64,000 nucleotides of DNA from Vairimorpha necatrix (GCA_036630325.1 CP142732.1:558001-622000), one strand, 5' to 3'. Shown: positions 1,341 to 64,000, counted from the stretch's first letter. Notes: generated by a model not told the origin, from the letters alone. Translations and numbers: made by a program.

Positions 1341-1378
1341 TGTTAACCATTTATTTATTAAGGGTTCTAAACCCTACA
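1341..1378 (-). repeat. 3' LTR (38 bp)
   Basis: TGTAGGGTTTAGAACCCTTAATAAATAAATGGTTAACA on minus strand, identical to 4378-4415. Confidence 0.95.
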
Positions 1379-4300
1379 TCCCCCCTCCAGACGGGTAGTC
1401 TCTCCATCTTCTAAACAACTCTTCCTTATCTCTTTCAAATCATAATGCCTCTTTTTAACAATTTTACCATCCAGTAGTCTCACAATATATGAATCATTTT
1501 CACTTATAGCTACGATCCTTCCGCGACCCGTGAATCTTCCCTTGTCTGTTTTCGCACGTGTACCTAAATTTTCTCTCCTAGCGATTCTTACCTCTTGGCC
1601 TACTGTAAATGTCTCTCTGTGTCTTCTCTTGAACCGACCAGCATATTTTCCATTTTCATCATTTTCAATTATAACTTCAGCAGTTTGATCTCTCCACGCT
1701 TCCATCGGCGTACATTTTATTGCTGTATGTAGTGTATTATTATATCCTTTGATTGCTCTTTCTATCTTTTCAGAAATATTCCCATCATTTTGCTTTATCA
1801 ATGTCTCTCTTATAGTTCTGATGCATCTCTCGATTCTACCATTACTCCTATGAGCTTCTAAGCCCACTTTCCTATGTTTAATATCATTAATACTACACCA
1901 TTCTTTAAATCTATTACTTACAAACTCTTTTCCGTTGTATGTCACATATTCCTCTGGAAATCCATCTTCCCTTATCCACTTTTGTAATACCTCTATAACT
2001 TCACTACTCTCTTTACATCTCAAATTCGAACCCCACAACCTTCTAGTAAAGTAATCAATACCCAGTAACACATACCTATTCTCTCCACCTATGTCCATTA
2101 AATCCAACGCCACTTTCTCCAATTTCTTTCTAGTTACTACGAAATCACATCCTCCTGTGTTTTTCCTATTGTTAATCCCACATATTTCACAATTCTTAAT
2201 TACCTTATTAATATGATCTTTCATACCAGGCCAATACCATCTTTGTTTAATGTTATAATAAGTGCCTTTGACACCTCTATGGTTTAACTCCTCATGTACT
2301 CTTGTTATTTCATGTTCTCTACTATCTAGGCTCAATATCTCTTTCACCTCACCTGTGGAAAATTCCCAATACTGTTTACCGTCCTTTTCTTTAATATGTT
2401 TCTGCTTTTTTCCCAAAATTTGTTTTTCGATCACTTCTTTTCTCTTGTTGTCCTTTTCTTTTTGTTCATCCGAAACTTCTACCTGATCATACTGCCTACT
2501 TAACGCATCTGCATCTGTCATCAACTCCCCTTTCACATACTCTATTGTAAAGTCAAACTCTTGTATCTGTTCTACCCATCTGTTTATTCTGTTATTATTG
2601 AAGTATGGCTTATTTCTGATCTCTGCTAATGCTTTATGATCCGTCATCAAATGAAATTTCCTTCCTCTCAAATCACTTTCAAACTTCTTTATTCCAAAAA
2701 ACACCGCCAACATCTCCTTCTCACTTATCGTATATCTTCGCTCGGTAGGAGTCAACATTTTCGATGCCCATTGTATCGGAATCCACTCACCCTCTTTATT
2801 TTCTTGTAATAGAATTGCTCCGATCCCCGTATTACACGCATCAATTCTTACTCTAAATAGCTTTTTTCCGTCCGGAATCTTCAACTTTTTCATATCTCTC
2901 AAGCCTTGCTTCATATCCTCAAAAGCTCTTTCCATATCCTCCGTCCAATTCCACTTAACATCTTTCTTTAAAGCCTCAGTAAGCCTTACTGTTCTATACG
3001 CATAGTTGGGAATAAAGTCTCTAAACCAACCAGTTAGTCCTAAAAATCTTCTTAACTCTCTAACATTCTCAGGTTTTCTATATTCCAATGTCTCCTGCTT
3101 TTTAATCTCATTCGGTCCCATGACCTCCCCATTAATTGTTACTCCCAGCAACATCACCTCATCTTTTTTGTATTGTATCTTTGTTTGGTTTATTCTCAAC
3201 CCACACTCTTTAAACTTTTTAATTACCCTCTCTAGTAACTCGTCATGCACTCTTACGTCTTTACCATGAATAACTATATCATCCATATATACTTCCACGC
3301 CTTTACCTCTGAATTCATCTAAAACTCTGTTCATTACTCTCTGCATTATATGAGGCGAATTCTTAAACCCCATAACCATACTATTCCATTCGTATACTCG
3401 ACCATTCACTTCAAATGCTGTTTTGTGCTTATGGTGCTCCTCAATCTCAATATGATAAAACCCTTCTTTTAAGTCGATAACCGTAAATACTTTTGACCCC
3501 TGTGTGGCTCTCATAATATCCTTAATTAACGGTAGTGAGTACGGGTCCTTGTCAACCAAATCGTTTAACGCCATCAAATTGCTTACCAATCTTACGTCCC
3601 CATTTGGTTTTTCAAGTGCTCTTATTGGACTCCTCCACTCACTTTTGGAACGTCTTATAACCCCTCTATTTTCCAACTTATTCAAGTACTCCTCAAATTT
3701 CACCCTAAGGTAGTATGGCACATTCTGCCCTCTTTTCACAACCTTTTCACCTTGCTTAGTATTTATTGGACACTTCTCTCCTGTGAGATATTTTATCTTT
3801 TCTTCTGATTCTTTAAAAACTTCCGGATACTTTTCAATTAAATTTTCTAACTTATTTACTGTTTTACATCTTTTCCCTTCATTGTTGATAATTGGTTCTT
3901 TCTGTAAAACTTGTTCCTTTTTAATTTTATATTTTTCCCTACCAGCCACACTTTCATGACATTCTCTAGCGTAATGCCCTTCTTTCTTACATATAAAACA
4001 TTTTGTAGTTTCTCTGATTTCTCTTCTTTTCCTATACATCCTAAGATTTTCTTTTCTTTCTTCCCTAAACTCTTTCAACACTTTATCCATAATCTCTTTA
4101 ATCATTTCTTGTCTTTCTTCTGACTCTCTCTCAAATTCTGCTCCTTTTTGTAAGCCTTTATAAATTTCCTCCCAACTGCTCCTTCCGTCACAAAAATTTT
4201 CAAAAATATAATCCTGCAAGTTCGCAGATGCCAAATCCATAACATCTTTCCACTCAACTTTCTCAACTTTCAATATTAACTTTAGTCTCTTATCTATCCT

Positions 4301-4387
4301 AATTGCCTCTTTCTCTAATGTTCTAGCCTCTTGACTACGGGACTCTCTTGTTTCCCTGTTCATCCTTGTGTTCGCCATGTTAACCAT
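1367..4387 (-). CDS. Gag-Pol polyprotein (short Gag, CCHC knuckle, RT, RNase H, integrase); no protease motif
   Basis: CFICKKEGHYAREC; IDLKEGFYH, MGFKNSP, YMDD; IDACNTGIGA; HEELNH...CEIC, LDLMD, SNGRIERC. Confidence 0.95.
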   Translation of the reverse strand: MVNMANTRMNRETRESRSQEARTLEKEAIRIDKRLKLILKVEKVEWKDVMDLASANLQDYIFENFCDGRSSWEEIYKGLQKGAEFERESEERQEMIKEIMDKVLKEFREERKENLRMYRKRREIRETTKCFICKKEGHYARECHESVAGREKYKIKKEQVLQKEPIINNEGKRCKTVNKLENLIEKYPEVFKESEEKIKYLTGEKCPINTKQGEKVVKRGQNVPYYLRVKFEEYLNKLENRGVIRRSKSEWRSPIRALEKPNGDVRLVSNLMALNDLVDKDPYSLPLIKDIMRATQGSKVFTVIDLKEGFYHIEIEEHHKHKTAFEVNGRVYEWNSMVMGFKNSPHIMQRVMNRVLDEFRGKGVEVYMDDIVIHGKDVRVHDELLERVIKKFKECGLRINQTKIQYKKDEVMLLGVTINGEVMGPNEIKKQETLEYRKPENVRELRRFLGLTGWFRDFIPNYAYRTVRLTEALKKDVKWNWTEDMERAFEDMKQGLRDMKKLKIPDGKKLFRVRIDACNTGIGAILLQENKEGEWIPIQWASKMLTPTERRYTISEKEMLAVFFGIKKFESDLRGRKFHLMTDHKALAEIRNKPYFNNNRINRWVEQIQEFDFTIEYVKGELMTDADALSRQYDQVEVSDEQKEKDNKRKEVIEKQILGKKQKHIKEKDGKQYWEFSTGEVKEILSLDSREHEITRVHEELNHRGVKGTYYNIKQRWYWPGMKDHINKVIKNCEICGINNRKNTGGCDFVVTRKKLEKVALDLMDIGGENRYVLLGIDYFTRRLWGSNLRCKESSEVIEVLQKWIREDGFPEEYVTYNGKEFVSNRFKEWCSINDIKHRKVGLEAHRSNGRIERCIRTIRETLIKQNDGNISEKIERAIKGYNNTLHTAIKCTPMEAWRDQTAEVIIENDENGKYAGRFKRRHRETFTVGQEVRIARRENLGTRAKTDKGRFTGRGRIVAISENDSYIVRLLDGKIVKKRHYDLKEIRKSCLEDGETTRLEGGCRV

Positions 4388-4415
4388 TTATTTATTAAGG
4401 GTTCTAAACCCTACA
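4378..4415 (-). repeat. 5' LTR (38 bp)
   Basis: Identical to 1341-1378; followed on minus strand by TGG PBS. Confidence 0.95.
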
Positions 4416-4702
4416 TATAGTAAACTAAAATAATGCCTGAATAATATTGTCTCGGGTTGGGTTATATCCACAATAACAACAATTAAACTACTAAATATGA
4501 TTTAAACCATCCAAGATATTCAATTGCAGAAAATTGCCAAATAAATATAGTTCTTCTTCAAATAAAAAGCCTTTTTCTTAAACTAGCTCTGTTCTGATGG
4601 CAAATTTTTTCTACTACTTGAAGTTTGCTTTTTTCATGCTATTTTTTTTCTTTAAATATTTTTATTTTTGATTTTGTTTGTTAACAAACAAACTCCTTAA
4701 TC

Positions 4703-5932: not shown

Positions 5933-6101
5933 AAATTTATTTTTTATTTTTTTTATTATGTTTTTTAATTTTATTTTTATGCGGCTAAAATTTTTATTTC
6001 ATTCTTTTTTTACGCTGCGTCTTTTTTATGCATTAAATTTTTTTATCTTTTTTTTATACAGCCTTTTATGCGTTAAATATAGTACCCCTTCAGATCGTCT
6101 T

Positions 6102-6153
6102 TTAAATTGTGTTGTCTTTTTAAATTGTGTTGTCTTTTAAATTGTGTTGTTTT
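6102..6153. repeat. Three tandem 17-bp repeats (TTTTAAATTGTGTTGTC)
   Basis: Directly visible just 3' of the TFC4 stop. Confidence 0.85.
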
Positions 6154-6154
6154 T

Positions 6155-8857
6155 TTAAGTCGTCTCATCCTCGTCATAGAGTTTCTTCAGTAAATGACTG
6201 TTGTTTTTCCTGTACACAATCATCAGGCTCAGTCTCCCCATTCTTCTCAATTCCTTATTCTGACTCTTCATAGCTTCTTTATAATATTTCTCTGCTATTC
6301 CCACATATCCAAGTGTATGATAAGTCACTCCTAAATTATAACATACATTACAATATTCTTCCTTATTTGATTCCTCTAATAACTTCTTTAATCCATTTAT
6401 TCCTTCTTTTAACATTTCATTTTTCGTCTCATTATTTCTACATTTATAAGTTATTATTAATATCAAATAATACGTCATTTTATCTCTAAAATTATCATTT
6501 AAAACGATATCTTTTAAAATTTTATAAGATCTCTTGGCAATATTCTTTACAAAAAAACTACTCAGTAAAATATTCAAATCTAAGTTTTTATAAGTTGAAA
6601 TAGCAGCATTTTCTTTATTTTTTAAACATTGTCCATTTCTTTTGTAAGTTCTTCTTATGTTCATTTGAATGTTCCCGTAGCTTCTTTTTAAAATGTAATC
6701 TGGGAAGAAATTTAAAAGGTAGAAATATAAATTTGACCACGAATAATCTCTGGTAACTTTGATAGCTTTTTTTATACAACTTGTCAAGAAATGTAAGTCA
6801 TTATAAAAAATACAGTGTTTTATGGTCATGAAAATAAATTGAAGATAAATGTCTTGTCTCTTTTTGAAAATCTCGCATTCTAGAGATTTCTTAAGAAGAT
6901 GCGAAGCCTCTTTAAGATTTCCTTTTTTAATATTTGAGATTGTAAATTCTAAGAGGACAGCAGACCATTCGTCAATATTTAGACCAGATAAACTTAAATA
7001 TCTAACATGTGTGTCATTATTAGAGCTAATAGCAGACAAATTCTCAATTAAATTGGAATCTTTTGTAAAAAGCTTGTGCTTTTTATATTTTGGAAAAATT
7101 AACCTGTTCTCTAAAAATTCATCTACTAAAGGTCGTACTGAGACAAAATACTCTTCATTTCTATTTTCTTTAAATAATACGCGGCTTTTCGTGTACAAAT
7201 CTCTGTTTTCATTACACTTTTCTTTTGAACATTCAAATTTATTTTTATTTTCAATATCATCCACGAAATTTATTAAAGACGCCACTGTGCAGAATTTATT
7301 CGCCAAATCGACATTGCCTAATTTTTTATAAATTTCGTATAAATTTGTCTTCACTGAATTTAGATCAGGATTTATTTCTAAAATCTTCTGGTAATAAAAA
7401 AGCGAATTATTTAAGTCGCCTTTTTTGTAATAAAAATCGGCTTTGCTTTTATAGACAAATTCTCTCATGTCTGTGACTTTGTGTTCTAATTTGTTTAATA
7501 TTTCGAGGTATAAGTCAAACATGGACAAATTTTCAAGTACTTTAAGGAGGCCTTTAATGTATTTTGACTCTTTGAAATTATTCCAGAAATATTCGTCATT
7601 TATTAAAGACTCTAAATCTGTAAATGAGCAATCATTTGACAATATTGTATTAATATTCAATGTTTTACTGTATGATTTATCTTTACTAATAATATTTTTA
7701 AAAACACTTCCTTGAGCTTCAAAAAGTGACTCTCTAAATTGAGCATCTTCAAAATTATCAAGATCTTCGATATCATCACTTTTATCTTGTATCTCTTCAT
7801 TTTTAGTAGTGTCTCTATTTATAAGTACACAAATAATGTAAATTATTCTTATATCTTGTGTCATTTCACTCGTATTAATCAAATATTTCTCTATCAAATT
7901 TCTAGTCCCGTAAAAATATCCTGTCTCATATTGAAGCCTAATAATTTCACACAAGAAACCTAGGCCGCATTTATTAGGATTTTCTTTAAAATATTTTATA
8001 AGCAAAAGCGCACACTGGCCTGTTCTTCTTTTGTGTCTGGTCTCATTTCTTATAACATTAAAAATATTGAAATCTACACCATCAAAATAAAATAACTCTA
8101 TTTTAGTCTCTAAAACTTTATATTTATACTTTAATATCTTATAAATCTGCAATTTCTCGACGACTAGTTCTCTAGTATTCTTATTTCTCTGTAATTTCTG
8201 AATAAAATAAAGTTTATCTAATAACAAATTATATTTAGTGCTTAATTCGTAAAGTTTATGCCATAATTGATAATTTGATCTCATGAGTTGAGAAGAAATA
8301 AGAAAAAAATTGTAAGATTTTAAATCATCTTTCAATTCTTCGAAAATTAGTCCCAACATGAAATATGCATTAGGATTCTTAGGATCCAAAGAAAGAATTG
8401 TTTTAAGAAGTGAAATGCAAGTAGGAAAATCATTTCTGACGAATGAAGTGTTTGTAAGAGAAAATAAGCGCTTTATTTCTAAATTTTTGTCTTTTTTAGA
8501 TTTGAACACGCTGACTGCATTTGGAACATCTTCTTTATTTTTAATAGTTATGTCATTATCTGATGAAGACATGTTTTGACCTTGTTCGTCGTACTTAACA
8601 AGTTTATTAGTATTTTCAATTAAGTTTGAAAATTCCTTGTCATTTTTATGATCTTCCATATTTATTTCATGACTATTTGAAATTTCTTCTTTGTTTGTTT
8701 CAAAAATTTCGAAAAAATCTTTATTTGGTTCAAACATATTTAAAAAATTTTCACTTAGTTCAAATTTATCTTCTTCGTTTATTTCATCTTCGCTCATGGA
8801 GTCAGACAAATTTAACAATTTTTTATTATCTCCTCTCTTTAATTCATCTTCTGCCAT
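6155..8857 (-). CDS. TFC4: TPR protein, likely TFIIIC subunit Tfc4/tau131 (GTF3C3)
   Basis: Acidic N-terminus, TPRs (LDPKNPNAYFMLGLIFEE), C-terminal YNLGVTYHTLGYVGIAEKYY typical of Tfc4. Confidence 0.75.
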   Translation of the reverse strand: MAEDELKRGDNKKLLNLSDSMSEDEINEEDKFELSENFLNMFEPNKDFFEIFETNKEEISNSHEINMEDHKNDKEFSNLIENTNKLVKYDEQGQNMSSSDNDITIKNKEDVPNAVSVFKSKKDKNLEIKRLFSLTNTSFVRNDFPTCISLLKTILSLDPKNPNAYFMLGLIFEELKDDLKSYNFFLISSQLMRSNYQLWHKLYELSTKYNLLLDKLYFIQKLQRNKNTRELVVEKLQIYKILKYKYKVLETKIELFYFDGVDFNIFNVIRNETRHKRRTGQCALLLIKYFKENPNKCGLGFLCEIIRLQYETGYFYGTRNLIEKYLINTSEMTQDIRIIYIICVLINRDTTKNEEIQDKSDDIEDLDNFEDAQFRESLFEAQGSVFKNIISKDKSYSKTLNINTILSNDCSFTDLESLINDEYFWNNFKESKYIKGLLKVLENLSMFDLYLEILNKLEHKVTDMREFVYKSKADFYYKKGDLNNSLFYYQKILEINPDLNSVKTNLYEIYKKLGNVDLANKFCTVASLINFVDDIENKNKFECSKEKCNENRDLYTKSRVLFKENRNEEYFVSVRPLVDEFLENRLIFPKYKKHKLFTKDSNLIENLSAISSNNDTHVRYLSLSGLNIDEWSAVLLEFTISNIKKGNLKEASHLLKKSLECEIFKKRQDIYLQFIFMTIKHCIFYNDLHFLTSCIKKAIKVTRDYSWSNLYFYLLNFFPDYILKRSYGNIQMNIRRTYKRNGQCLKNKENAAISTYKNLDLNILLSSFFVKNIAKRSYKILKDIVLNDNFRDKMTYYLILIITYKCRNNETKNEMLKEGINGLKKLLEESNKEEYCNVCYNLGVTYHTLGYVGIAEKYYKEAMKSQNKELRRMGRLSLMIVYRKNNSHLLKKLYDEDETT

Positions 8858-16325: not shown

Positions 16326-16693
16326 TAAGAGTTTATAAAACTCTAAAAAAGAGGGGTAAAGATTAAATAAATTTTTTTTATATAATGAAGCAGATGGGTA
16401 AAGTGATATTCAGTATCGTTTTTCATATTTTTGTTATGTTTTTTCAGATTCAAAAATTCAAACTTATGTTGTTGGTTTTTTTCTTTCGTTGATATCAAAT
16501 TTCCTCTTAAATTCATCAATAGAATCATATGTGTTTCCTTGAGCGTCGATATTATAAAGCTTCAATTTTGCAATTATCATTATAATTAGTTATATGTTAA
16601 AATAAATTGAAAAAAAAAGCTTTTAAGATTTAAATGATGAAGATTCATTATTATATCAAAATATTGAGAGAAATAAAAATCGAAGAAAGAAGT

Positions 16694-17197
16694 TTATTCT
16701 GAATCTAAATCCGAATCAGTAGAGGTAATAGGCATTACAATGCTGAAAAAAATCACAAGCACAATACAAACAAATGCTATATAAGTCCAAACAGAAGCGA
16801 AGAGTTGATCGAAACGATAGCAAAGATCACGTTTTTGCTCTTCTTTTGGTTTGTTTTCTATTTTGTCATTGGATTTAGGCAAAGAAATATCATTGGGCGC
16901 ATCTTTATCAGGAGACATGGTAATTTTTGTTTCGTCATGGGAATTATTCTCATTGGTTTTTATAGTACTATTTAGGTCTTTATTTGGAGTAACTGCCCTT
17001 TTTTGATGTTCCGTTTTTGAATTAAGAGTATGAAGTTCAAAATTTTGTTCTTGATGATCCTCGCCGATGTATCTTTTTGGCTTTTCGGAGGTCAATGGTT
17101 TATATTCATTTTTAGATAAGAGCATTTGCATTTTCTTTACTTTTCCTTCAATATTCGATGCTAAAATACTTTGAACTAGTAAGCATAAAAATTTCAT
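16694..17197 (-). CDS. Small signal-peptide + C-terminal TM protein, tandem family copy 1
   Basis: MKFLCLLVQSILAS leader, YKPLTSEKPKRY, DETKITM, C-terminal hydrophobic helix; CCC-ATG. Confidence 0.85.
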   Translation of the reverse strand: MKFLCLLVQSILASNIEGKVKKMQMLLSKNEYKPLTSEKPKRYIGEDHQEQNFELHTLNSKTEHQKRAVTPNKDLNSTIKTNENNSHDETKITMSPDKDAPNDISLPKSNDKIENKPKEEQKRDLCYRFDQLFASVWTYIAFVCIVLVIFFSIVMPITSTDSDLDSE

Positions 17198-18507
17198 GGG
17201 AATAAATTTTTTTTTTTATTTTAAAGTGTCAAGTAAAATTTTTTTCAATCGAAAAATTAGTTAAAAACTATTGAGTGTGAAAAACTGGTTATTACATTGA
17301 TTTTAATTCTTAATCCTGATATTCTAAAAAAAACACATTGCTAGATGACGTTTGAATAGGTCAATGCCTAATGTTCTGAACTGTATTTCTAAACATGTCA
17401 AAATAGCTAAAAAAAATCAACGTAAAATTTTACGTTCTAAAACTGGATTTGTGTAACTACTTAAAGTATTTTTTTTTGGTTCTACATATATGTAAAGATA
17501 AAAATTTTTAAAAATTGAGGAATTTGATCTTTAATAAAAATTTTATCTATAATATATTACATAGTAAATTTCGGAGGAAACTTTCGGAATATTTTTATAA
17601 TTTGGTCTGTTCAGAAAGAAAATTTTTTGATGACAGGCATTTTGATATACAAAAAAAACATCCGATTTTTGACAGCCTAAAATCAATATCCCTTTTTATG
17701 AAATTAAGATTTGGAATGAACTTGTTAAACGACTGCTTTATGCTGTCAATATCTACAATGTGTCTTCAGCAGTGTTACAAATAAATTCTTTTGAAGGAAT
17801 GAACCCAACGAACGTGATAAAGCTTGAGGCTCATAAGAGCAAAAAAAAATTTCTCAAGTAAATAGTTACATTGCGCCGGCAGAAGCAAGCTCACAGTGTA
17901 TTTTGATTCGAATTATTTTATAAAAATTTTGATTAATCTTATATTTTTTTTGTAATTATTTAACACTTTTTTTTAATTATTGATACTAAAAACTTCATAT
18001 AAAATATGACAAGCTTAGATTTGTCAAAAAACAATATTTGGAACAAGGTTTCTAAAAATAATAGTACAAATAAAAACGCATTTACAAATAGTATACGTTC
18101 TTTAAATCATTAGAAAAGTTTGAATTCATATTAAAATTGCATGAAAAAATAACTGCAAATAGGTAGTTGAGAGATTACTAAACTACGAAAAAATAAGGTA
18201 AAAATTAAATGAATTTTTTTCGGGCATCTTCGGTCGACAAATTGTGGTATCCCGGGGAAACCCTCCCGGTTATAAAGTAATATTCTAATATACTTCTAAT
18301 AAATTGTTTTTTATTGGTAACTGTCCCTCTGGACTCTCTCTCCTGACGCTCTTTGGTCCTCTGTTCCATCTCCTTTTATGTGTACCCTTCCTTTTCTGAA
18401 AATATATTTATAGTAAATTTTATTCATGAAAATTCAATGAGAGTTTTGACAGGGAGAGAAATAAAATAAATGTTGAAGACTAACAGTCTACAACATCCTG
18501 CCCCCTC

Positions 18508-21378
18508 TCAAAGCTTTAGCTGTTTCCTGTGAAACCATCCTACTAATCCATGTACTTTGTACCATAATCCATTTTTTCCCTTTTTGCACACCTTGTATGG
18601 TCCTATAAATTTTTTATCAAGTTTGTTTCTTGAAAAGTTCTTCACATAAACACTTTCTTCGATTTTAAGCTCCTGATCATTAGTTTTCTTCGGGCTTTTA
18701 TCTGTTCTTATTATATTGATATAAAAGTTGTTTTTTATTCTAAAGGGATCGTAAAAATTTACTCCCGTTTCCAAGGACATCGGAGATATCTTAATTTTCC
18801 TATGCCAATTTTCATTCAATCTATGTTCAATAAGGCCTGTCAATTCTTTTATTGGTCTTCTTTTATAGATTCGTAAACTTTCGCCAATTGTTTTATTTAT
18901 TCTTTCACTAATTCCATTGGAACTAGGGTGGTAAGTAGGCGTTTTAATATGTTTAATACCTTTGTTACTGAAATATCTTGTGATTTCTTGAGAAATATAC
19001 TGGGTGCCATTATCACTTATAAAATTCTGTGGTTTTTTATATTTTTTAATCCAAGTCTCTATGCAATTCATAATTTCTGTCGAATCTGCCTTGTTAACAA
19101 ATCTAATTTGAGATATTCTCGAGTAAACGTCTGTTATTGTAATAATATATATCTTTCTCGGTTTATCGGAGATTTCTAAATCTCTAGCCAATATCGGCCC
19201 ATAAATATCACTGCTAATGGTGTGAAATTTCTCTTTTGAGGTGATCGTTTCTCTTCTACATTTTACTACTTGGTTTTTATTTTCTTTACATTTTAAACAC
19301 TTTGCAATGACTTCTTTAATATTTTTCTTAATCTGTGGTATATCGAAATATTTTGAAATATTATTGTACGTTACGCTACAACCTGCGTGTCCTGATATCT
19401 CATGTATATATTCTAACATAAATTTAATCTTATTAACCGGAAGTGTGATCTTTGATCTGAATTTTGACTTTAAATTTATCATTCTTTGTTCTTCAAACAC
19501 CTCATTCCCAACACATTCTCGTATAGTTCTTATGTAATCATCTTCGTTATTTTTAGTTTCCTCTGTAATTAACAACATTCTAGATAAATAGTCCGCTATG
19601 TTATTCTCTTTTCCTTTGATGCTTGAAATATTAAAATTATATTCGTTTAGTAGTAATTTCCATCGTTCGATGCGGGACGATATCTTCCTATTATTGTAAA
19701 TACAGTTTAAATTGTCTGTCTTAATTTCAATATGATATCCCTTAACTATATTTTCATAAAACTGCAATGCCTTTATTATTGCAAATAGCTCCTTTTCCAC
19801 TATCGAGTAATTATATTCGGTAGGTGATAGTTTTTTACTATAATGTCCTATCACTCCATGCTCTTGGAACAAAACTGCACCTATACCGGAATCGCATGCA
19901 TCTGCTTGTAAGTAAAATACTTTTGTAAAATCCGGGAAGTTTAAAGTTGCTTTCTCGTGAATGATACTCTTTACATCCTCAATTATTCCCTGTTCAATAT
20001 TTGTCCATTTAAATTTGTCATGTTTTAATAACTCACTGATCTTAGCCATTTTAGAACTAAGGTTTGGTACAAAAACTCTATACCAATTCAAAACCCCCAA
20101 TAATCTTTGTAAATGCTTTTTCTTTGTGGGTTTGATATCAAAAATTTTATTTTTCAAATACTCTTTATCTGCTCGAATCGAGTTCTTGCTTATGAAATAT
20201 CCCAATACTTTAATTTCTTTCATATATAATTTTGTTTTCTCAAAATTAATTTGTACTCTTTTCTTAAAAAGGCATTTAAGCACATCTATTAGTGCTTTAT
20301 CATGTTCATCTTTGTTTTTCCCAAAAACTACAATGTCGTCTATATATACGAAACAGTTTTTTATCTTACCTAATATTTCCATCATGGTTTTTTGAAAAAC
20401 CTTTGGTCCCGACTTAACACCGAATGGGACTCGATTATATTGATAGTGTATGTTCCCCACTATAAATCCAGTATATTTTTTGGATTCTTCATCTAATGGA
20501 ATTTGATTGAATCCATTTCGTAAATCTATGGATGAATAATACTCCATTCCTCCCAATGCTTGGAGTTCTTTAAATATTTTTGGTATGCAATTTACCTCAT
20601 CAGAAATTTCCTCATTTAATTTTCTATAATCTATAACCATCCTTATTTCACCATTCTTTTTATTTATAAAGAACGCGGGACTAGAGAAATTTCCTTTTCC
20701 TCTTTCAATAATTCCCAATCCTAGTAATCTGCCTATTTCTTTTTCGGCTTTTTCTTTCATCTTAACGTTAATCTCATAACCCCTTGATTTTAATTCAAAT
20801 TTATTTTCTGAAACTTTTAGTTTGTATGGTTCAACATCCATACTCGTAAATTCTTTATTAAAGTGTTTGTATTTAATTAAAAGGTTATAAAGTTCAATAT
20901 TCTTATTTATTTCTAATCCTTCATCTGCTACGCATAGTCGGTCAATCATTATCTTGTCTAGCGTCTTTTCTGTCACTTCTTCATAACCAATGATTTTAAT
21001 TATTTCCTCATCACAAATTACGACCTTATTTTTGTAATCTAAAACACAGTTATTGTTAAACAAAAAATCTCCTCCTAAAATTACCTCATGCGTACATCTC
21101 TCAAAAATATATGGTTCAATATTGTAATTCTTATTCACTCCTTCAAATTTAATTTCAAATTCTGTAGACTTATTACTAGTTATGACTTCTCCGTTTGCTA
21201 TAACTGTTCTAATAGCTTTATTTTCTCTTAGTGGTAAATTTAATTTCTTAGCCAAGCTTTCTGAAATAAAACTTCTACTGGCTCCACTATCTAATAATAC
21301 TTTAATATTGTGTTCCTTGATTTTAGCTCTTACAATGATTTCTCTAACCGAATCTTTTTCTTCTTCCATGATGTTCAT
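18508..21378 (-). CDS. Pol (protease, RT, RNase H, integrase); frame stays open up to 21507
   Basis: LLDSGA, YIDD, ADACDSGIGA, HEISGH...CLKC, SDIYGP, SDNGTQY, SNGISER. Confidence 0.95.
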   Translation of the reverse strand: MNIMEEEKDSVREIIVRAKIKEHNIKVLLDSGASRSFISESLAKKLNLPLRENKAIRTVIANGEVITSNKSTEFEIKFEGVNKNYNIEPYIFERCTHEVILGGDFLFNNNCVLDYKNKVVICDEEIIKIIGYEEVTEKTLDKIMIDRLCVADEGLEINKNIELYNLLIKYKHFNKEFTSMDVEPYKLKVSENKFELKSRGYEINVKMKEKAEKEIGRLLGLGIIERGKGNFSSPAFFINKKNGEIRMVIDYRKLNEEISDEVNCIPKIFKELQALGGMEYYSSIDLRNGFNQIPLDEESKKYTGFIVGNIHYQYNRVPFGVKSGPKVFQKTMMEILGKIKNCFVYIDDIVVFGKNKDEHDKALIDVLKCLFKKRVQINFEKTKLYMKEIKVLGYFISKNSIRADKEYLKNKIFDIKPTKKKHLQRLLGVLNWYRVFVPNLSSKMAKISELLKHDKFKWTNIEQGIIEDVKSIIHEKATLNFPDFTKVFYLQADACDSGIGAVLFQEHGVIGHYSKKLSPTEYNYSIVEKELFAIIKALQFYENIVKGYHIEIKTDNLNCIYNNRKISSRIERWKLLLNEYNFNISSIKGKENNIADYLSRMLLITEETKNNEDDYIRTIRECVGNEVFEEQRMINLKSKFRSKITLPVNKIKFMLEYIHEISGHAGCSVTYNNISKYFDIPQIKKNIKEVIAKCLKCKENKNQVVKCRRETITSKEKFHTISSDIYGPILARDLEISDKPRKIYIITITDVYSRISQIRFVNKADSTEIMNCIETWIKKYKKPQNFISDNGTQYISQEITRYFSNKGIKHIKTPTYHPSSNGISERINKTIGESLRIYKRRPIKELTGLIEHRLNENWHRKIKISPMSLETGVNFYDPFRIKNNFYINIIRTDKSPKKTNDQELKIEESVYVKNFSRNKLDKKFIGPYKVCKKGKNGLWYKVHGLVGWFHRKQLKL

Positions 21379-21428
21379 TTCACTTCTTCTTGGAAAATTC
21401 TTATCGTAGTCATTTCTTTTTCCGTTAT

Positions 21429-22295
21429 TTAAAAAACAGTCAACTGAATTATGACCATTGTGCTTATGAAATTTGCACCACTTCTTTTGTAGAGGGAAAT
21501 ATTGTTCCTAAAATTCTTAGTAGCTGTTTCGTGCTTCCTCATATCCATGTTGTTGTTTCTTAACTTTAAAATTTCTTCCTCCATCGTCTTTAGCTTCTTC
21601 ATATATGCATCCAAATTATGCACATCAAGACTTTCAATTAGTATTCTCTTCGTTTTGCTTCCTAAACCCTTCTTGAAGCATTCCCATAGCTTCCTGTTGT
21701 ACTCTTCTCTGCTTATCTTATGGGCAATACTATAATATTTTATATAACTATTGATGTATTCATAATACTCACTTATCGACTCAAAATTTTCTTGTCTTGC
21801 ACTGGATAATTTATCAATCCATTCTTCCGCTCTATCAATACTATAGGCTCTACTTAGAATTCTTTCAGTAATTTTACTTAATTCTCCTTTAAATACTTTA
21901 TCATCAATTGACTTATCACTTATTAAATCTCTTAAGATGAGCTCATACTGCTCACTGTTCCATTTATTTCTTAAACTTATTTTTTCGAATGTTTCTAGCC
22001 ATTCACACATATCAAAACTATAAATATCCTCTATGATATTTAACTCGGTCTCGATCTTCATATCCGTTCCTTTAACGGTGTAACTTAATTTCACTTTCTT
22101 CTTGTTAACCTCACTATGGTTAATCTTTTTGTAGCTCGTGCTCAAAATACTCGCACTTGAATTCAAGCTGTGGTATCCCGGGGAAACCCTCCCGGTTATA
22201 AAGTAATATTCTAATATACTTCTAATAAATTGTTTTTTATTGGTAACTGTCCCTCTGGACTCTCTCTCCTGACGCTCTTTGGTCCTCTGTTCCAT
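21429..22295 (-). CDS. Gag-like ORF
   Basis: Lies upstream of pol; RQENFESISEYY major-homology-like motif; true start uncertain because the ORF begins inside the LTR. Confidence 0.8.
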   Translation of the reverse strand: MEQRTKERQERESRGTVTNKKQFIRSILEYYFITGRVSPGYHSLNSSASILSTSYKKINHSEVNKKKVKLSYTVKGTDMKIETELNIIEDIYSFDMCEWLETFEKISLRNKWNSEQYELILRDLISDKSIDDKVFKGELSKITERILSRAYSIDRAEEWIDKLSSARQENFESISEYYEYINSYIKYYSIAHKISREEYNRKLWECFKKGLGSKTKRILIESLDVHNLDAYMKKLKTMEEEILKLRNNNMDMRKHETATKNFRNNISLYKRSGANFISTMVIIQLTVF

Positions 22296-22731
22296 CTCCT
22301 TTTATGTGTACCCTTCCTTTTCTGAAAATATATTTATAGTAAATTTTATTCATGAAAATTCAATGAGAGTTTTGACAGGGAGAGAAATAAAATAAATGTT
22401 GAAGACTAACAGTCTACAACACAAATGAAACCCATTTAGCATTTTTTTATCAAGTTTGACTTTTTTTTCCAGATTACAATATTCAGGCTCATGTCGATGA
22501 ATTTTATTATGGTTTATTTTTTCTTTCGTTAAAATCACCTCCGCTTTACAATTCATCAACATGATCACAAGAACTCTTTAACATGCAAAAATTATAGACA
22601 CTCAATTTGTAGATAATATTATATATTTTGTTATCATGTTACATAAACTAAGAAACATAGATATTATTATTTTTATGTGGAGATTCATTATTTTTGTAAT
22701 ATTGAGAGAAATAAAAATCAAAGAAAGAAGT

Positions 22732-23224
22732 TTATTCAAAATCCGAATCTATAAAGTAATAGGCATTAAAATGCTGAAAAAAATTACAGGCACAATACAA
22801 ACAAATTCTATATAAGTCTTAACAGAAACAAAGAGTTGAAGGAAACAATAGCAAAGATCACGGTTTTGCTTTTTTTGGTTTGTTTTCTATTTTGTCATTG
22901 AATTTAGACACAGAAATATCATTGGACGCATCTTCATCAGTAGACATGGTAATTTTTGTTTCGTCATGGGAAATATTGTCATTGGTTTTTATAGTACTAT
23001 TTAGATCTTTTTTTAGAGGAACTGCCCTTTTTTGATGTTCCGTTTTTGAATTAAGAGTATGAAGTTCAAAATTTTGTCCTTGATGATCCTCGCCGATATA
23101 TCTTTTTGGCTTTTCGGAGTTCAATGGTTCATAACCATTTTTAGAGAAGAGCATTTGCATTTTCTTTACGTTCCCTTAATACCGATGCTAAAATACTTTG
23201 AACTAGCAAATATAAAATTTTCAT
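22732..23224 (-). pseudogene. Tandem family copy 2, frameshifted
   Basis: High nucleotide identity to 16694-17197; indels after MKILYLLVQSILAS and before the TM segment. Confidence 0.85.
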
Positions 23225-24287
23225 GGGCGTAAATTTTTTTTTATTTTAAAGTGTCATGTAAAGTATTTTTTTTAATTGCATAAATAAAAACGCCTAAACG
23301 TTTTATAAATCTGTTGTATACATTAATTTATACAATGTAAGTTTTGGTAATCTAAAAAGATAAAACACACTTTAATAACGTTTAAATAGTAAAATATCTC
23401 ATGCTCTATACTGTTTTTCTAAAACATGTCAAAATTTCTAAAAAATTATTCGTTCACAAAAAAAATAGTCTATGCTTTCAGGCTCTAACTTTATTTTTTG
23501 CGTACCTATATAATGTATTTTTGCTTCGATTCATCATCTATATAAAGTTGAAAAAGTTTATAAGTAAAAGTTGTGATTATTTTTAAAAATCTTATTATCA
23601 ACATAAATATTAAAGTAAATTTCGGAGGTTAATTCCGAAAAGAATAAAGTTTTAGGATGCTCGGGGAGAGGCATTATGGTGATAGATATTTCAAAAGACG
23701 AGAAAACATTAGACTTTTAACAGGATAATCTCATGCGTCTATCTATGTAATAAAAGTCTGTAAAGAACTTATTTTATGTTTGCTTTTGGACGTCAAATAT
23801 CTCTAATGTTTCGTCAGTAGTATTCCAAATAAATACATTTCGAGGAGGTAATACCAAGAAGGTATCAGACTTGGGCTATAAGATAGCAGAAAATAATATA
23901 AGTATTTATAAGAACAATATTAGGTTGGCAGGCAAAATCCAGCCCCTTAGTAAATTTAATGCAAATTGTTCTACAATAATAATGAGATAATTTTAGATTT
24001 TTTTGTCATTATTAAACACTTAAATTAAAATTTTTCAACTTTACAATTATATGACAAGAAAAAATTTAGATTAAGTGACAATAAAGGATTTGAATATGAT
24101 TTATTAAAAATAATAGCTAAAGTACAAACGTGTTTACATATAGTATATGCCCTTTTAATCATCAAAAGCATATTAATATTCATATGAAATTATAGAAAGA
24201 AAACAACTGCAAAAAGTTAAGTCGAGAGAAACCATTACTATGAAAATGAGGATAAAATTAAAATAAAAATATTATATATGTATGATA

Positions 24288-39483: not shown

Positions 39484-39678
39484 TTGCGCATTTTTTTTTA
39501 TACTTAAACTTTATGTATCTTTTTCAAATATCTTAGATCTTAAATACATATTAATCCACTAGCTTAATTCCTTCTAAAACATTTTAGATCTTTTTTACAT
39601 TTCGATCTACTATTTAAATCTTATCTGAAATATCTTTTTTATAATATTTTAATTATGTTTCCTTTAGTTATGTTTCTT

Positions 39679-40395
39679 TTATAAAATTCTGGTTATGTTT
39701 TCTTTTAATATTTTGTAGGTCTCTAAATCTTTATATTTTTCTTTAAATTCCCCTTTGTCAAGCATTTTACCAAATTCTGGTTCTACTGGCAATTTACTTA
39801 CAAATTGTAATTTATAATATTCACTAATCTTCTCTCCTCCTCTACTTGCAAAAATATTTGTTATATGTTTACATTTCTTACATTTATATCCACTCATATT
39901 TTCTATTACTCCCAATATTTCTATATTATTCATCTGACAAAATTCTATGGCTTTTACTGTGTCACTAAGCGCCACATTCTGCGAAGTGGTCACAATTAGA
40001 CTTTTAATATTTTTGTTTACTAAAAAGTCATGTTCTTCACTTATTCCAGGGGGAGTGTCAATTATGACGAAGTCATAATCGTCAATAGACTCATAGAATA
40101 AATTTAGAAGACTGAGTTTTTTGGGTCCTCTCCAAATGACAGCGTCTTCTTTGTTTATCATTGAGCCCATTGACAAGACATGAAGATTGTCTGTGATTTT
40201 TATGGGGATAAGACCTTTACTGCCTTTTTTTACTTGGCCTTTTCCGCCTAGACTTGTGACGCAACTTGGGCCGCAAATATCAAAATCCAAAAGAAGACAC
40301 TTTTTAGATTCTGATAAAATCATGGACAGGAGGATCGAGAGACTAGATTTGCCCACTCCGCCCTTGCCACTCATGACTGCTATCTTATTTACCAT
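39679..40395 (-). CDS. CFD1: Cytosolic Fe-S cluster assembly P-loop NTPase, Cfd1/NUBP2 type
   Basis: SGKGGVGKS, DICGPS, AVIWRGPKK, DTPPG, ENMS..CKKC; lacks the N-terminal 4-Cys extension of Nbp35. Confidence 0.88.
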   Translation of the reverse strand: MVNKIAVMSGKGGVGKSSLSILLSMILSESKKCLLLDFDICGPSCVTSLGGKGQVKKGSKGLIPIKITDNLHVLSMGSMINKEDAVIWRGPKKLSLLNLFYESIDDYDFVIIDTPPGISEEHDFLVNKNIKSLIVTTSQNVALSDTVKAIEFCQMNNIEILGVIENMSGYKCKKCKHITNIFASRGGEKISEYYKLQFVSKLPVEPEFGKMLDKGEFKEKYKDLETYKILKENITRIL

Positions 40396-62758: not shown

Positions 62759-64000
62759 TGTTATATATTCTTATATTTCTGAACCCCAATTATGAAAAAT
62801 AAATACATGGGGGCGATACCGAATCGTGAGCTAACAAGTGTTGGCTGGGAATAAGAGGCCGGAAGGTTATTAGAAGAGTTTATGAGGGTTGTTTGATGGA
62901 CTAGTATTGTCTAATTATGATTTTGAGAAGAATGTAAAAAGGGAGATTTTTGATCTTGGAACTGATGGGTTGAAAAATTTTATGGTTAAGAATATTAAGA
63001 TTGAAGATAATTGGAAAGTTATGGAAACCAAATTAGAAGAACTGGTTATAGAACAGGAGGAAAAAAGGGATAAGAGATTATGGATGATTGAGGAGGTCAC
63101 AAAGATGGTAGCAGAGGATATCAGAAATATTAGTAGAGAGGAAAGAATATTTGTGAAGAGAAGAAGTATAAGATGTCATAATTGTTCAAGAATTGGACAT
63201 AAAAGTCAGATGTGCTATTATAGATATAGAAATGTTAAGAATAATGACGAATGTGAGAAGATTAATAAAGAAGGTAGCAGTAGCTGCGATGAGGAACGTA
63301 TAGGAACACATGGAATGCGAAAAGACAAAAGAAGCAAGAATGGAAGACAAGAAATAAAAGAAGTTATGATGAGGTAGAAAAAATCGGATTAACATTAGAA
63401 GACATAAGAAAGAGATATATGAACGTTAGAAACAACGAAGAAGAGAAAATAAGTTATTGTAAAATCGAAAAGTTCAGAATCAGAACTGAAGAAGGTAAAA
63501 AAGTTGTAAGGAAAGGTCAGCAGGTGCCACAAGCGCATAAAGAAGAGCCGAAAAAATATATTCAGGGGTTAGAGACAAGGAATGTCATGGAAGGAAGATC
63601 GACGTCGGAATGGTGAAATCTGATTAAAGCTTTAGTTAAGCCAGATGGAAGTATAAGACTGGTTAGCAATCTCATTGCATTTAATGATTTAGTAAAGAAA
63701 GACCCGTATGAATTAGTGGACATTAAGATATCATAAGGAACACGCAAGGGTCTAAGTTTTTAGGTGTTTAAGACCTTAAGGAGGCTTTTTTCGGGATCGA
63801 AATAGAAGAGCAAGATAAACATAAGACCGCATTTAAGAATGATAAGATAGTTATGGGTGGAATAGTATGGTCATGAGGTTTAAAAACTCGCCCCAGATCA
63901 TGCAGAGAATTATAAATAAAATTTTTGAAAAACATTTGTGTGGTAAAACAGAAGTGTACATGGACGATATAGTGATTCATGCGAAGACTAGAAAAGAACA
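62759..64000 (+). mobile_element. Degenerate Ty3/gypsy element of the same short-LTR, protease-less type; runs off the window
   Basis: Candidate 49-bp LTR 62759-62807 (TG...CA) + PBS TGGGGGCG; gag with CHNCSRIGHKSQMC; RT pieces KPDGSIRLVSNLIAFNDLV, FKNSPQIMQR, EVYMDDIVIH with stops and frameshifts. Confidence 0.85.

Follow-up and report, generated by a model that had tools for sequence, protein, structure and literature searches.

A long terminal repeat (LTR) retrotransposon of 3,075 bp was characterized in a 64,000-nucleotide stretch of DNA from Vairimorpha necatrix (GCA_036630325.1, CP142732.1:558001-622000), which is referred to here as the window. The element occupies positions 1341-4415 of the window on the minus strand and reads from 4415 to 1341. 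With a probability of about 0.78, the copy is intact and was inserted recently, and it represents a multi-copy, Ty3/gypsy-derived element from a microsporidian lineage that has lost its protease and whose LTRs have been reduced to 38-39 bp. With these reductions, it ranks among the most compact elements of its type. Judged by homology and domain order, the element is derived from the Ty3/gypsy family, from which it departs in LTR length and in the protease.

The two terminal repeats, located at 4378-4415 (5' LTR) and 1341-1378 (3' LTR) on the minus strand, were identical at 38 of 38 nt and carried TG..CA ends (TGT...ACA in the sense of the element). When the 38-bp pattern was searched with up to three mismatches, only these two sites were found in the 64 kb, and 0 of 100 shuffles gave two matches. 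In the sense of the element, the 5' repeat is TGTAGGGTTTAGAACCCTTAATAAATAAATGGTTAACA (TGTAGGG...TTAACA), and it is directly followed by TGGCGAACACAAGG (4364-4377, minus strand), a sequence resembling a primer-binding site (PBS) that starts with TGG and overlaps codons 1-5 (M-A-N-T-R) of the frame opened by the ATG at the junction. The polypurine tract GGAGGGGGGA (1379-1388, minus strand) abuts the 3' LTR within the last codons of the open reading frame (ORF; ..LEGG..), and a homologous tract, GGAGGAGGGGA, was found in the relative L030. The element is flanked by a target-site duplication of 5 bp, TATAG on the plus strand (CTATA in the sense of the element), at 1336-1340 and 4416-4420; the chance of such a flank match is 0.0025 at the base composition of the window. 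Direct comparison and inspection of the junctions therefore upheld a sequence-only reading of the window, which had proposed identical 38-bp TG...CA repeats, an exact 5-bp duplication, a TGG abutting the 5' LTR and a purine tract abutting the 3' LTR. Automated repeat detection reported 39 nt, because both repeat copies adjoin a T, which on the right begins the duplication and on the left belongs to the complement of the purine tract. An alternative parse with a 39-bp repeat and a 4-bp duplication (ATAG) is possible and was considered less likely, because the relatives have TG..CA ends and 5-bp duplications.

A single ORF of 3,021 nt including the stop codon (1367-4387, minus strand) encodes 1,006 amino acids (aa) from the first ATG, which lies at positions 29-31 of the 5' LTR. 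This sole long ORF of the element opens in one repeat and closes in the other. A second, in-frame ATG begins at LTR position 38 and consists of the last A of the LTR and the TG of the adjoining TGG (4378-4376); translation from it would give 1,003 aa. The 5' LTR contains A-CCC-T at positions 14-18 (CCC at 4399-4401), and the 3' LTR contains the stop codon TAG at positions 10-12 (1367-1369) and two overlapping AATAAA signals at positions 20-29 (1350-1359). Coding sequence makes up 98% of the element and leaves only 28 nt 5' of the ORF and 26 nt 3' of it, a total of 54 non-coding nt out of 3,075. The G+C content of the 2-kb bins covering the element was 0.35-0.36, compared with 0.27 for the whole window, and the GC skew was -0.46 because the coding strand is purine-rich. 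The ORF call agrees with the 3,075-bp element and 3,021-bp ORF of the earlier reading, to which the present analysis adds the minus-strand orientation, the lost protease, the very small size of the gag-like part and the start codon placed across the junction of LTR and PBS.

Pfam analysis of the ORF revealed, in order, a CCHC zinc knuckle (CFICKKEGHYAREC; aa 129-144, window 3956-4003), the reverse transcriptase (RT) domain RVT_1 (aa 259-418, 3134-3613) with YMDD at aa 367-370, the RNase H of RT (RT_RNaseH_2/RT_RNaseH; aa 481-611, 2555-2947), the H2C2 zinc-binding domain of integrase (aa 690-741, 2165-2320) and the integrase core rve (aa 766-839, 1871-2092), all on the minus strand. In the alignment with 26 homologues, YxDD, the RNase H residues D516 and D583, the H2C2 residues H698, H703, C733 and C736, and D762 and E853 were invariant. 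The candidate DD35E residues, by our own assignment, are D762, D817 (at least 90% conserved) and the invariant E853. The best matches among solved structures were those of yeast Ty3, namely Gag-Pol (7q5b, E = 8.6e-63) and RT/RNase H (4ol8, E = 6.4e-56), which ranked ahead of the caulimovirus-type 'enzymatic polyprotein' and of RTs of the foamy-virus and gammaretrovirus types. The order zinc knuckle-RT-RNase H-integrase and the top structural match to Ty3 thus support the Ty3/gypsy affinity that had been proposed.

A protein search placed the ORF product in a clade of proteins of approximately 950-1,050 aa, with 45-66% identity and 85-98% query cover. The closest named proteins were from Nosema granulosis, Vairimorpha necatrix and Enteropsectra breve, together with two labelled as proteins of Clostridium metagenome-assembled genomes (MAGs). 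Members of the clade currently carry no annotation beyond 'pol polyprotein' or 'reverse transcriptase', or have ended up in MAGs of bacteria through mis-binning, and 21 of the 47 best protein matches were carried on contigs of 3,000-3,300 bp, about the size of one element. The DNA of the relatives was taken from metagenome contigs and from two MAG records with bacterial labels (G001 and G002), and these two records were also searched; a search of viral contigs gave no relative.

Short repeats were also found in the relatives. L030, with 66-69% aa identity to the window element, is cut by its contig at the 5' end and has a 38-bp 3' repeat, TGTTGGGTTATTAGCCCCTATTAAATAAATGACTAACA, homologous to the window repeat and preceded by the purine tract mentioned above. 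L003 (51% aa identity, decayed ORF) has 39-bp repeats with one mismatch, TTATA on both sides, ACA followed by TGGCACCCAG at the 5' junction, and AAGGCGGGGA before the 3' repeat. Among the more distant relatives, L015 (27% aa identity) has identical 53-bp repeats, GATGT on both sides, ACA followed by TGGCGGAC, and AAAAAGGGCT before the 3' repeat. L031 (36-42%) has identical 58-bp repeats, no duplication, ACA followed by TGGTGGAG, and the poor tract GCGGCGGCA, and its ORF extends from the ATG at the junction as far as a stop codon at position 16 of the LTR. L046 (33%) has identical 75-bp repeats, no clean duplication, ACA followed by TGGCGACGGCG, and AGGAGGAGAGG before the 3' repeat, and L042 (34%) has a repeat of approximately 176 bp, ACA followed by TGGCGACAGCG, and GGGGAGGAGG before the 3' repeat. 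The repeats of L040, L048 and L011 measured at least 117, 139 and 98 bp, respectively. Perfect 5-bp duplications were present in three of the five complete short-repeat elements. L031, L015 and L046 share the junction of ACA and TGG with the window element, and L031 and L046 share the single ORF opening in the 5' LTR and the presence of CCC and AATAAA in the repeat, the ORF of L031 also closing in the 3' LTR; unlike the window element, all three retain a retropepsin motif (D[TS]GA) and have no CCHC knuckle, and their lengths range from 3.36 to 4.68 kb.

The distribution of repeat length was compared with a tree of 48 pol rows (IQ-TREE quick search, LG+G4), which was midpoint-rooted and is in effect unrooted. 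The window element and L030 were joined with a support of 100 in the Shimodaira-Hasegawa-like approximate likelihood ratio test (SH-aLRT), inside a 20-row clade (SH-aLRT 99) that includes L003. All five elements with repeats of 58 bp or less fell in one 28-row clade (SH-aLRT 96), and all six with repeats of 75 bp or more fell outside it. As judged from these sequences, short repeats are a trait of the family and not a one-off.

Further observations concern other relatives. A decayed relative with 50-69% aa identity in pieces, interrupted by stops and frameshifts, lies on the plus strand from approximately 62760 to 64000 and extends past the window edge; its 5' TG...ACA block of at most 49 bp is followed by TGGGGGCGATACCG, and its ATG spans the junction. 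L001 and L002 contain a 5'-truncated relative, whose ORF starts at about aa 86, behind an inverted stretch resembling an LTR end and PBS (..GGGTGCCATGT..), an arrangement that suggests a rearranged or nested insertion. G001 and G002, titled as Clostridium and Turicibacter MAGs, gave 33 and 11 matches to gypsy pol, respectively, located on contigs that are AT-rich and 1-6 kb long. Transposon contigs of eukaryotic and probably microsporidian origin have evidently been mis-binned into these bacterial records.

Next, contigs of four public runs were placed on the element and its 200-bp flanks. Contigs of X1, X2 and X3 covered most of the element at 99% identity or higher, and the flanking sequence switched exactly at the outer end of the repeat, at 4416 and 4417 in X2, at 4416 in X3 and at 1378 in X1. 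The last position is an alias of the outer end because the repeats are identical. At least four other flanks beginning at the outer end of the repeat were detected. In X1, the word depth was 60.6-65.3 for contigs of the element and 2.7 for the contig joining LTR and flank; the corresponding values in X2 were 61-1393 and 5.2. Such an excess is a sign of a repeat, and depth is not copy number. X2 and X3 come from other studies, and the coverage and branching of their contigs did not bear out the possibility, raised in the sequence-only reading, that the junctions would lack support.

The depth in X2 was very uneven: it reached 1228-1393 over the gag-like part at the 5' end, fell to 61-143 in the middle and was 465 at the 3' end. 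In addition, several internal 'skip' joints with short sides (20-60 letters) occurred at a depth of 80-520, although joints of this kind are unreliable. Truncated copies, copies with internal deletions or related families may account for this pattern. One X2 contig, approximately 96% identical, spans the left flank from 1188 to 1341 and continues with 40 letters unlike the element; it looks as an empty site would, given that a T follows the duplication as well.

The part of the protein that precedes the zinc knuckle is a gag-like N-terminal region of only about 125 aa (4004-4378, minus strand). An AlphaFold model of residues 1-200, built from a 15-sequence alignment, had a mean predicted local distance difference test (pLDDT) score of 81 and consisted of a helical head (11-62), a 56-residue helix (69-124), the knuckle and a further helix. 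Foldseek searches of this model against PDB and BFVD for a capsid fold gave no match at E <= 0.001. A wide structural search returned generic helical proteins with a best Z of 6.1, and the Arc capsid entries (4x3x C-lobe, Z 5.7, root-mean-square deviation 3.0 over 63 aligned residues; C-terminal domain, Z 5.0-5.1) were within the noise for helical models. A single capsid-like lobe in the modelled N-terminal region is thus possible. A protein search with the N-terminal region only gave one match, a partial Nosema granulosis protein, the region being too divergent to size the clade.

No protease family of Pfam was matched by the window ORF at E <= 0.1, and no D[TS]G was present in its N-terminal 205 residues. 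Because only 62 residues separate the knuckle from the conserved N-terminal region of RT, there is no room for a protease. Among 27 aligned clade members, none matched an aspartic-protease Pfam family at E <= 0.01, and all 27 matched RVT_1, RNase H, H2C2 and rve. The spacing between knuckle and RT was 56-105 aa in these members, and the stretch was free of D[TS]G in 26 of them; P0009 has DSG in this stretch, and P0042 has DTG at position 11 only. By contrast with the clade, D[TS]G[AS] was found approximately 270 residues upstream of YxDD in L031/P0050, P0046, L046, L042, L040, L048 and a second, canonical element of the window, and L015 carries LLDSGA. The motif was absent in P0042, P0043, P0045, P0037 and the rest of the 20-row clade, to which the CCHC knuckle was confined among the rows examined. 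Taken together, the protease is lost across the clade as far as its aligned sequences indicate.

Several observations weigh against the reading of a recently inserted, intact copy from a mobile short-LTR lineage. The 38 identical bases have almost no dating power. L031 and L046 have no clean target duplication, the tree is a quick LG+G4, midpoint-rooted one in which L015 sits on a long branch, and X1 is possibly the source sample of the window, so that it is not independent support. No run listed as containing the element is recorded as RNA, and the boundaries of U3, R and U5, like the start and poly(A) sites, are predicted. ARAGORN predicted no tRNA genes, either in the window or in the 36 loci scanned. 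A search of G001 and G002 for the tRNA 3' end expected from the window PBS gave no exact match, and matches with one mismatch were fewer than for the control pattern. Autonomy is doubtful because the element lacks a protease and a recognisable capsid fold, and an intact protease-bearing element in the same window could complement it.

The last-named element is a canonical Ty3/gypsy element at 18243-22421 on the minus strand. It has identical 253-bp LTRs (18243-18495 and 22169-22421) flanked by a CAAAT duplication, a 288-aa ORF in the gag position (21429-22295) without a Pfam match, and a 956-aa pol with a DSG protease that matched six protease families. It shares with the short-LTR element the host genome, the type of ends (TGTTGT...ACA in the canonical element), a 5-bp duplication and the RT-RNase H-integrase order, and differs from it in the length of the LTRs, the separate gag ORF, the protease and the absence of TGG after the 5' LTR; the two are 28% identical in aa sequence, and the canonical element lies outside the short-LTR clade. 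It is probably also young, and it is a possible source of protease in trans. The protein of the short-LTR element may act unprocessed or may borrow a protease, for example from this element 14 kb away. Around the canonical element, a segment of approximately 1.7 kb is duplicated at a spacing of about 6.03 kb (16464-18115 and 22504-24167) in pieces that are 70-93% identical, and it includes paralogous ORFs at 16694-17197 and 22858-23160.

How the short-LTR element completes its cycle may accordingly be viewed in different ways. Tentatively, it could be a minimal autonomous LTR retrotransposon of 3.07 kb, in which a single unprocessed protein, with no protease and perhaps no capsid shell, does the whole cycle, and in which the 38-bp LTR holds the promoter, R, poly(A) signal, stop codon, start codon and both attachment sites. 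It is somewhat unlikely, and compatible with the anatomy, that the element is structurally complete and not autonomous, having lost the protease and most of gag, and that it receives a protease and perhaps a capsid from protease-bearing gypsy elements of the same genome, in the manner of non-autonomous LTR elements. The absence of a protease from all 27 clade members, the N-terminal model with no capsid match and the intact canonical element with its DSG protease all favour such dependence. However, at least 20 protease-less lineages, with 45-69% aa identity, have open frames of about 1,000 aa and invariant RT, RNase H and integrase residues, which argues for long-term selection on their own enzymes. 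In addition, the clade keeps a CCHC knuckle that is absent in the protease-bearing relatives examined, and cutting by a foreign protease is conjecture.

The primer was considered separately. The PBS types seen were TGGCGAACAC.., TGGGGGCGAT.. and TGGCACCCAG.., and ACA was followed by TGG in all six elements with a known 5' junction. The tRNA ends predicted from the PBS of L046 and L031 matched the elements themselves and G001:C85, a coding-looking sequence with no tRNA gene. Priming may not be by tRNA at all, the TGG being merely part of the ATG-G start context, with self-priming of the Tf1 type or an internal tRNA fragment in its place. This is improbable, although no tRNA was matched in the window, the 36 loci or G001 and G002, and although TGG belongs to the start context ATGG in every element. 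For Tf1-type self-priming, the longest complementarity between LTR and PBS was 4 nt in the window element, a length reached by 366 of 500 shuffles; in five of five elements it was 4-5 nt and was equalled by 291-492 of 500 shuffles, i.e., it remained at shuffle level. The conserved junction in six of six elements also speaks against non-tRNA priming, as does L015, whose ORF starts 73 nt further on, so that its TGG is not start context. Moreover, the protein starts MANTR, MGA.., MAS.. or MAP.. are more conserved than the surrounding sequence. Homologues begin with these residues at the junction ATG, in an N-terminal region that is otherwise about 30% identical, and a PBS overlapping codons 1-5 may explain this conserved protein start.

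It is very improbable that the element is an immobile deletion derivative of a long-LTR element, with 38-bp remnants as its repeats. LTRs usually measure a few hundred bp to several kb, as stated in a passage of a review (PMC4196380), and the 38 bp found here fall far outside this range; a gypsy element with 253-bp LTRs is also present in the same window. However, homologous repeats of 38-39 bp were found in relatives at 51% and 66-69% aa identity, other insertions have the same outer boundary, and the perfect duplication, the intact ORF and the PBS and purine tract abutting the repeats are all preserved, while the canonical element of the window is only 28% identical and lies outside the clade. 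This alternative, which the sequence-only reading had named as a finding that would overturn it, is largely refuted by the repeats of the relatives, which measure 38 (L030), 39 (L003), 53 (L015) and 58 bp (L031). There is a negligible probability that the repeat and the duplication match by chance or stem from misassembly: short repeats are common in an AT-rich genome (27% GC), but the shuffles and the chance of the duplication given above, the contigs from runs of different studies that reproduce the element, and the exact placement of the repeats around a gypsy ORF that has both a PBS and a purine tract stand against it.

The repeat also carries signals of the type used by host genes. For 7 of 11 non-transposon window ORFs of at least 200 aa, CCC was present among the 15 nt that precede the first ATG, compared with 4% of random 15-mers (binomial p = 4e-8). 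This pattern agrees with the start signal described for N. ceranae and E. cuniculi in a passage of Cornman 2009 (PMC2685015), namely purine-CCC-pyrimidine, mostly within 15 bp of the start. On this motif, the sequence supports a microsporidian origin of the window, and the motif could aid start-codon annotation. In the LTR, A-CCC-T sits 14 nt upstream of the first ATG, and the LTR reads AACCCTTAATAAATAAATG, which resembles the upstream region AACCCTTATTAAGAAAATG of the host gene at 39678-40395. Both CCC and AATAAA were present in four of seven aligned repeats (window, L030, L031 and L046). The L003 repeat has both signals in reversed order, the block at about 62.8 kb has CCC and only AAATAAA, and L015 has neither.

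A mechanism can be proposed on these grounds, in which the 38-bp repeat would serve at both ends as a minimal microsporidian gene boundary. The CCC motif and the AT-rich stretch of the 5' copy would direct initiation a few bases upstream of the ATG, and in the 3' copy the same 38 bases would provide the stop codon and the AATAAA poly(A) signals. R would therefore be only about 10-25 nt long, and U3 and U5 a few to about 15 nt each. A tRNA-type primer would pair with the TGG... sequence adjoining the LTR and overlapping the first codons, a very short minus-strand strong-stop DNA would move to the 3' R, and the purine tract in the last codons would prime the plus strand. The DDE integrase would then join the TGT...ACA ends and create the 5-bp duplication, and the protein composed of gag-like part and knuckle, RT, RNase H and integrase would work unprocessed or be cut by a protease in trans. 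From the arrangement of these sequences, we infer that U3-R-U5 and both strand transfers fit inside 38 nt.

The element was compared with known systems. Yeast Ty3 has LTRs of a few hundred bp, overlapping GAG3 and POL3 frames, a protease and a two-lobed capsid. The window element shares with it the RT-RNase H-integrase order, the TG..CA ends, the 5-bp duplication, the PBS after the LTR and the purine tract before the 3' LTR, but has 38-bp LTRs, one ORF, no protease and a gag-like part of about 125 aa. Tf1 of fission yeast has a single gag-pol ORF, a protease, and priming from its own 5' end; the single ORF is shared, whereas the LTR-PBS complementarity of the window element is at chance level and a protease is missing. 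TRIM and SMART elements are reduced LTR elements with no coding capacity and LTRs of roughly 100 bp or more. In contrast to TRIM, LARD and SMART elements, the window element codes for intact RT, RNase H and integrase over 98% of its length. The Mag element of Bombyx has an LTR of approximately 77 bp, so that the window LTR is half that length or less, and to our knowledge the shortest LTRs of coding elements measure approximately 77-85 bp.

In the literature, Ty3/gypsy groups with a single polyprotein ORF have been described in microsporidia in the parts of Parisot 2014 (PMC4202319) concerned with them, a study also cited in a passage of PMC13174016, and the 1,006-aa ORF agrees with this one-polyprotein arrangement. 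The same article, in a passage on regulation, reports a microsporidian regulation signal in a transposable element (TE) promoter. Its File S1 contains the A. algerae Consensus_retroA, whose terminal repeats, in the portion of the file considered, are clearly longer than 100 bp. The article text available gives no LTR lengths, and the word 'protease' is absent from its main text. Passages of PMC2685015 and PMC5012567 merely list gypsy-type elements in microsporidian genomes. No description of such short LTRs or of protease loss was found in the literature searched, and the tables of Parisot 2014 and a paper on a Nosema bombycis element may list lengths. On the shortest LTRs, only papers on plants, mouse, bat and a smut fungus were found.

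Elsewhere in the window, short tandem repeats were present at 546-617 (a 34-nt unit, two copies, 97% identical) and at 6097-6163 (a unit of approximately 18 nt, three copies).

Structural finders of LTR elements are commonly set to a minimum repeat length of approximately 100 bp. If this minimum holds, the whole clade would be missed, and the TE content and activity of microsporidian genomes may be misjudged. The present element brings the LTR size of an apparently mobile element down to 38-39 bp and would serve as a test case for minimal U3, R, U5 and attachment sites. That a whole clade has lost the protease but kept RT, RNase H and integrase raises the question of whether members of this superfamily must process their polyprotein. 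If the minimal autonomous reading is true, the element would set a new lower bound for an LTR and for an LTR element, and proteolytic maturation would be dispensable in a Ty3/gypsy lineage. In a repeat that appears to mimic a host gene boundary, the compaction of microsporidian genomes would reach the genome's own parasites.

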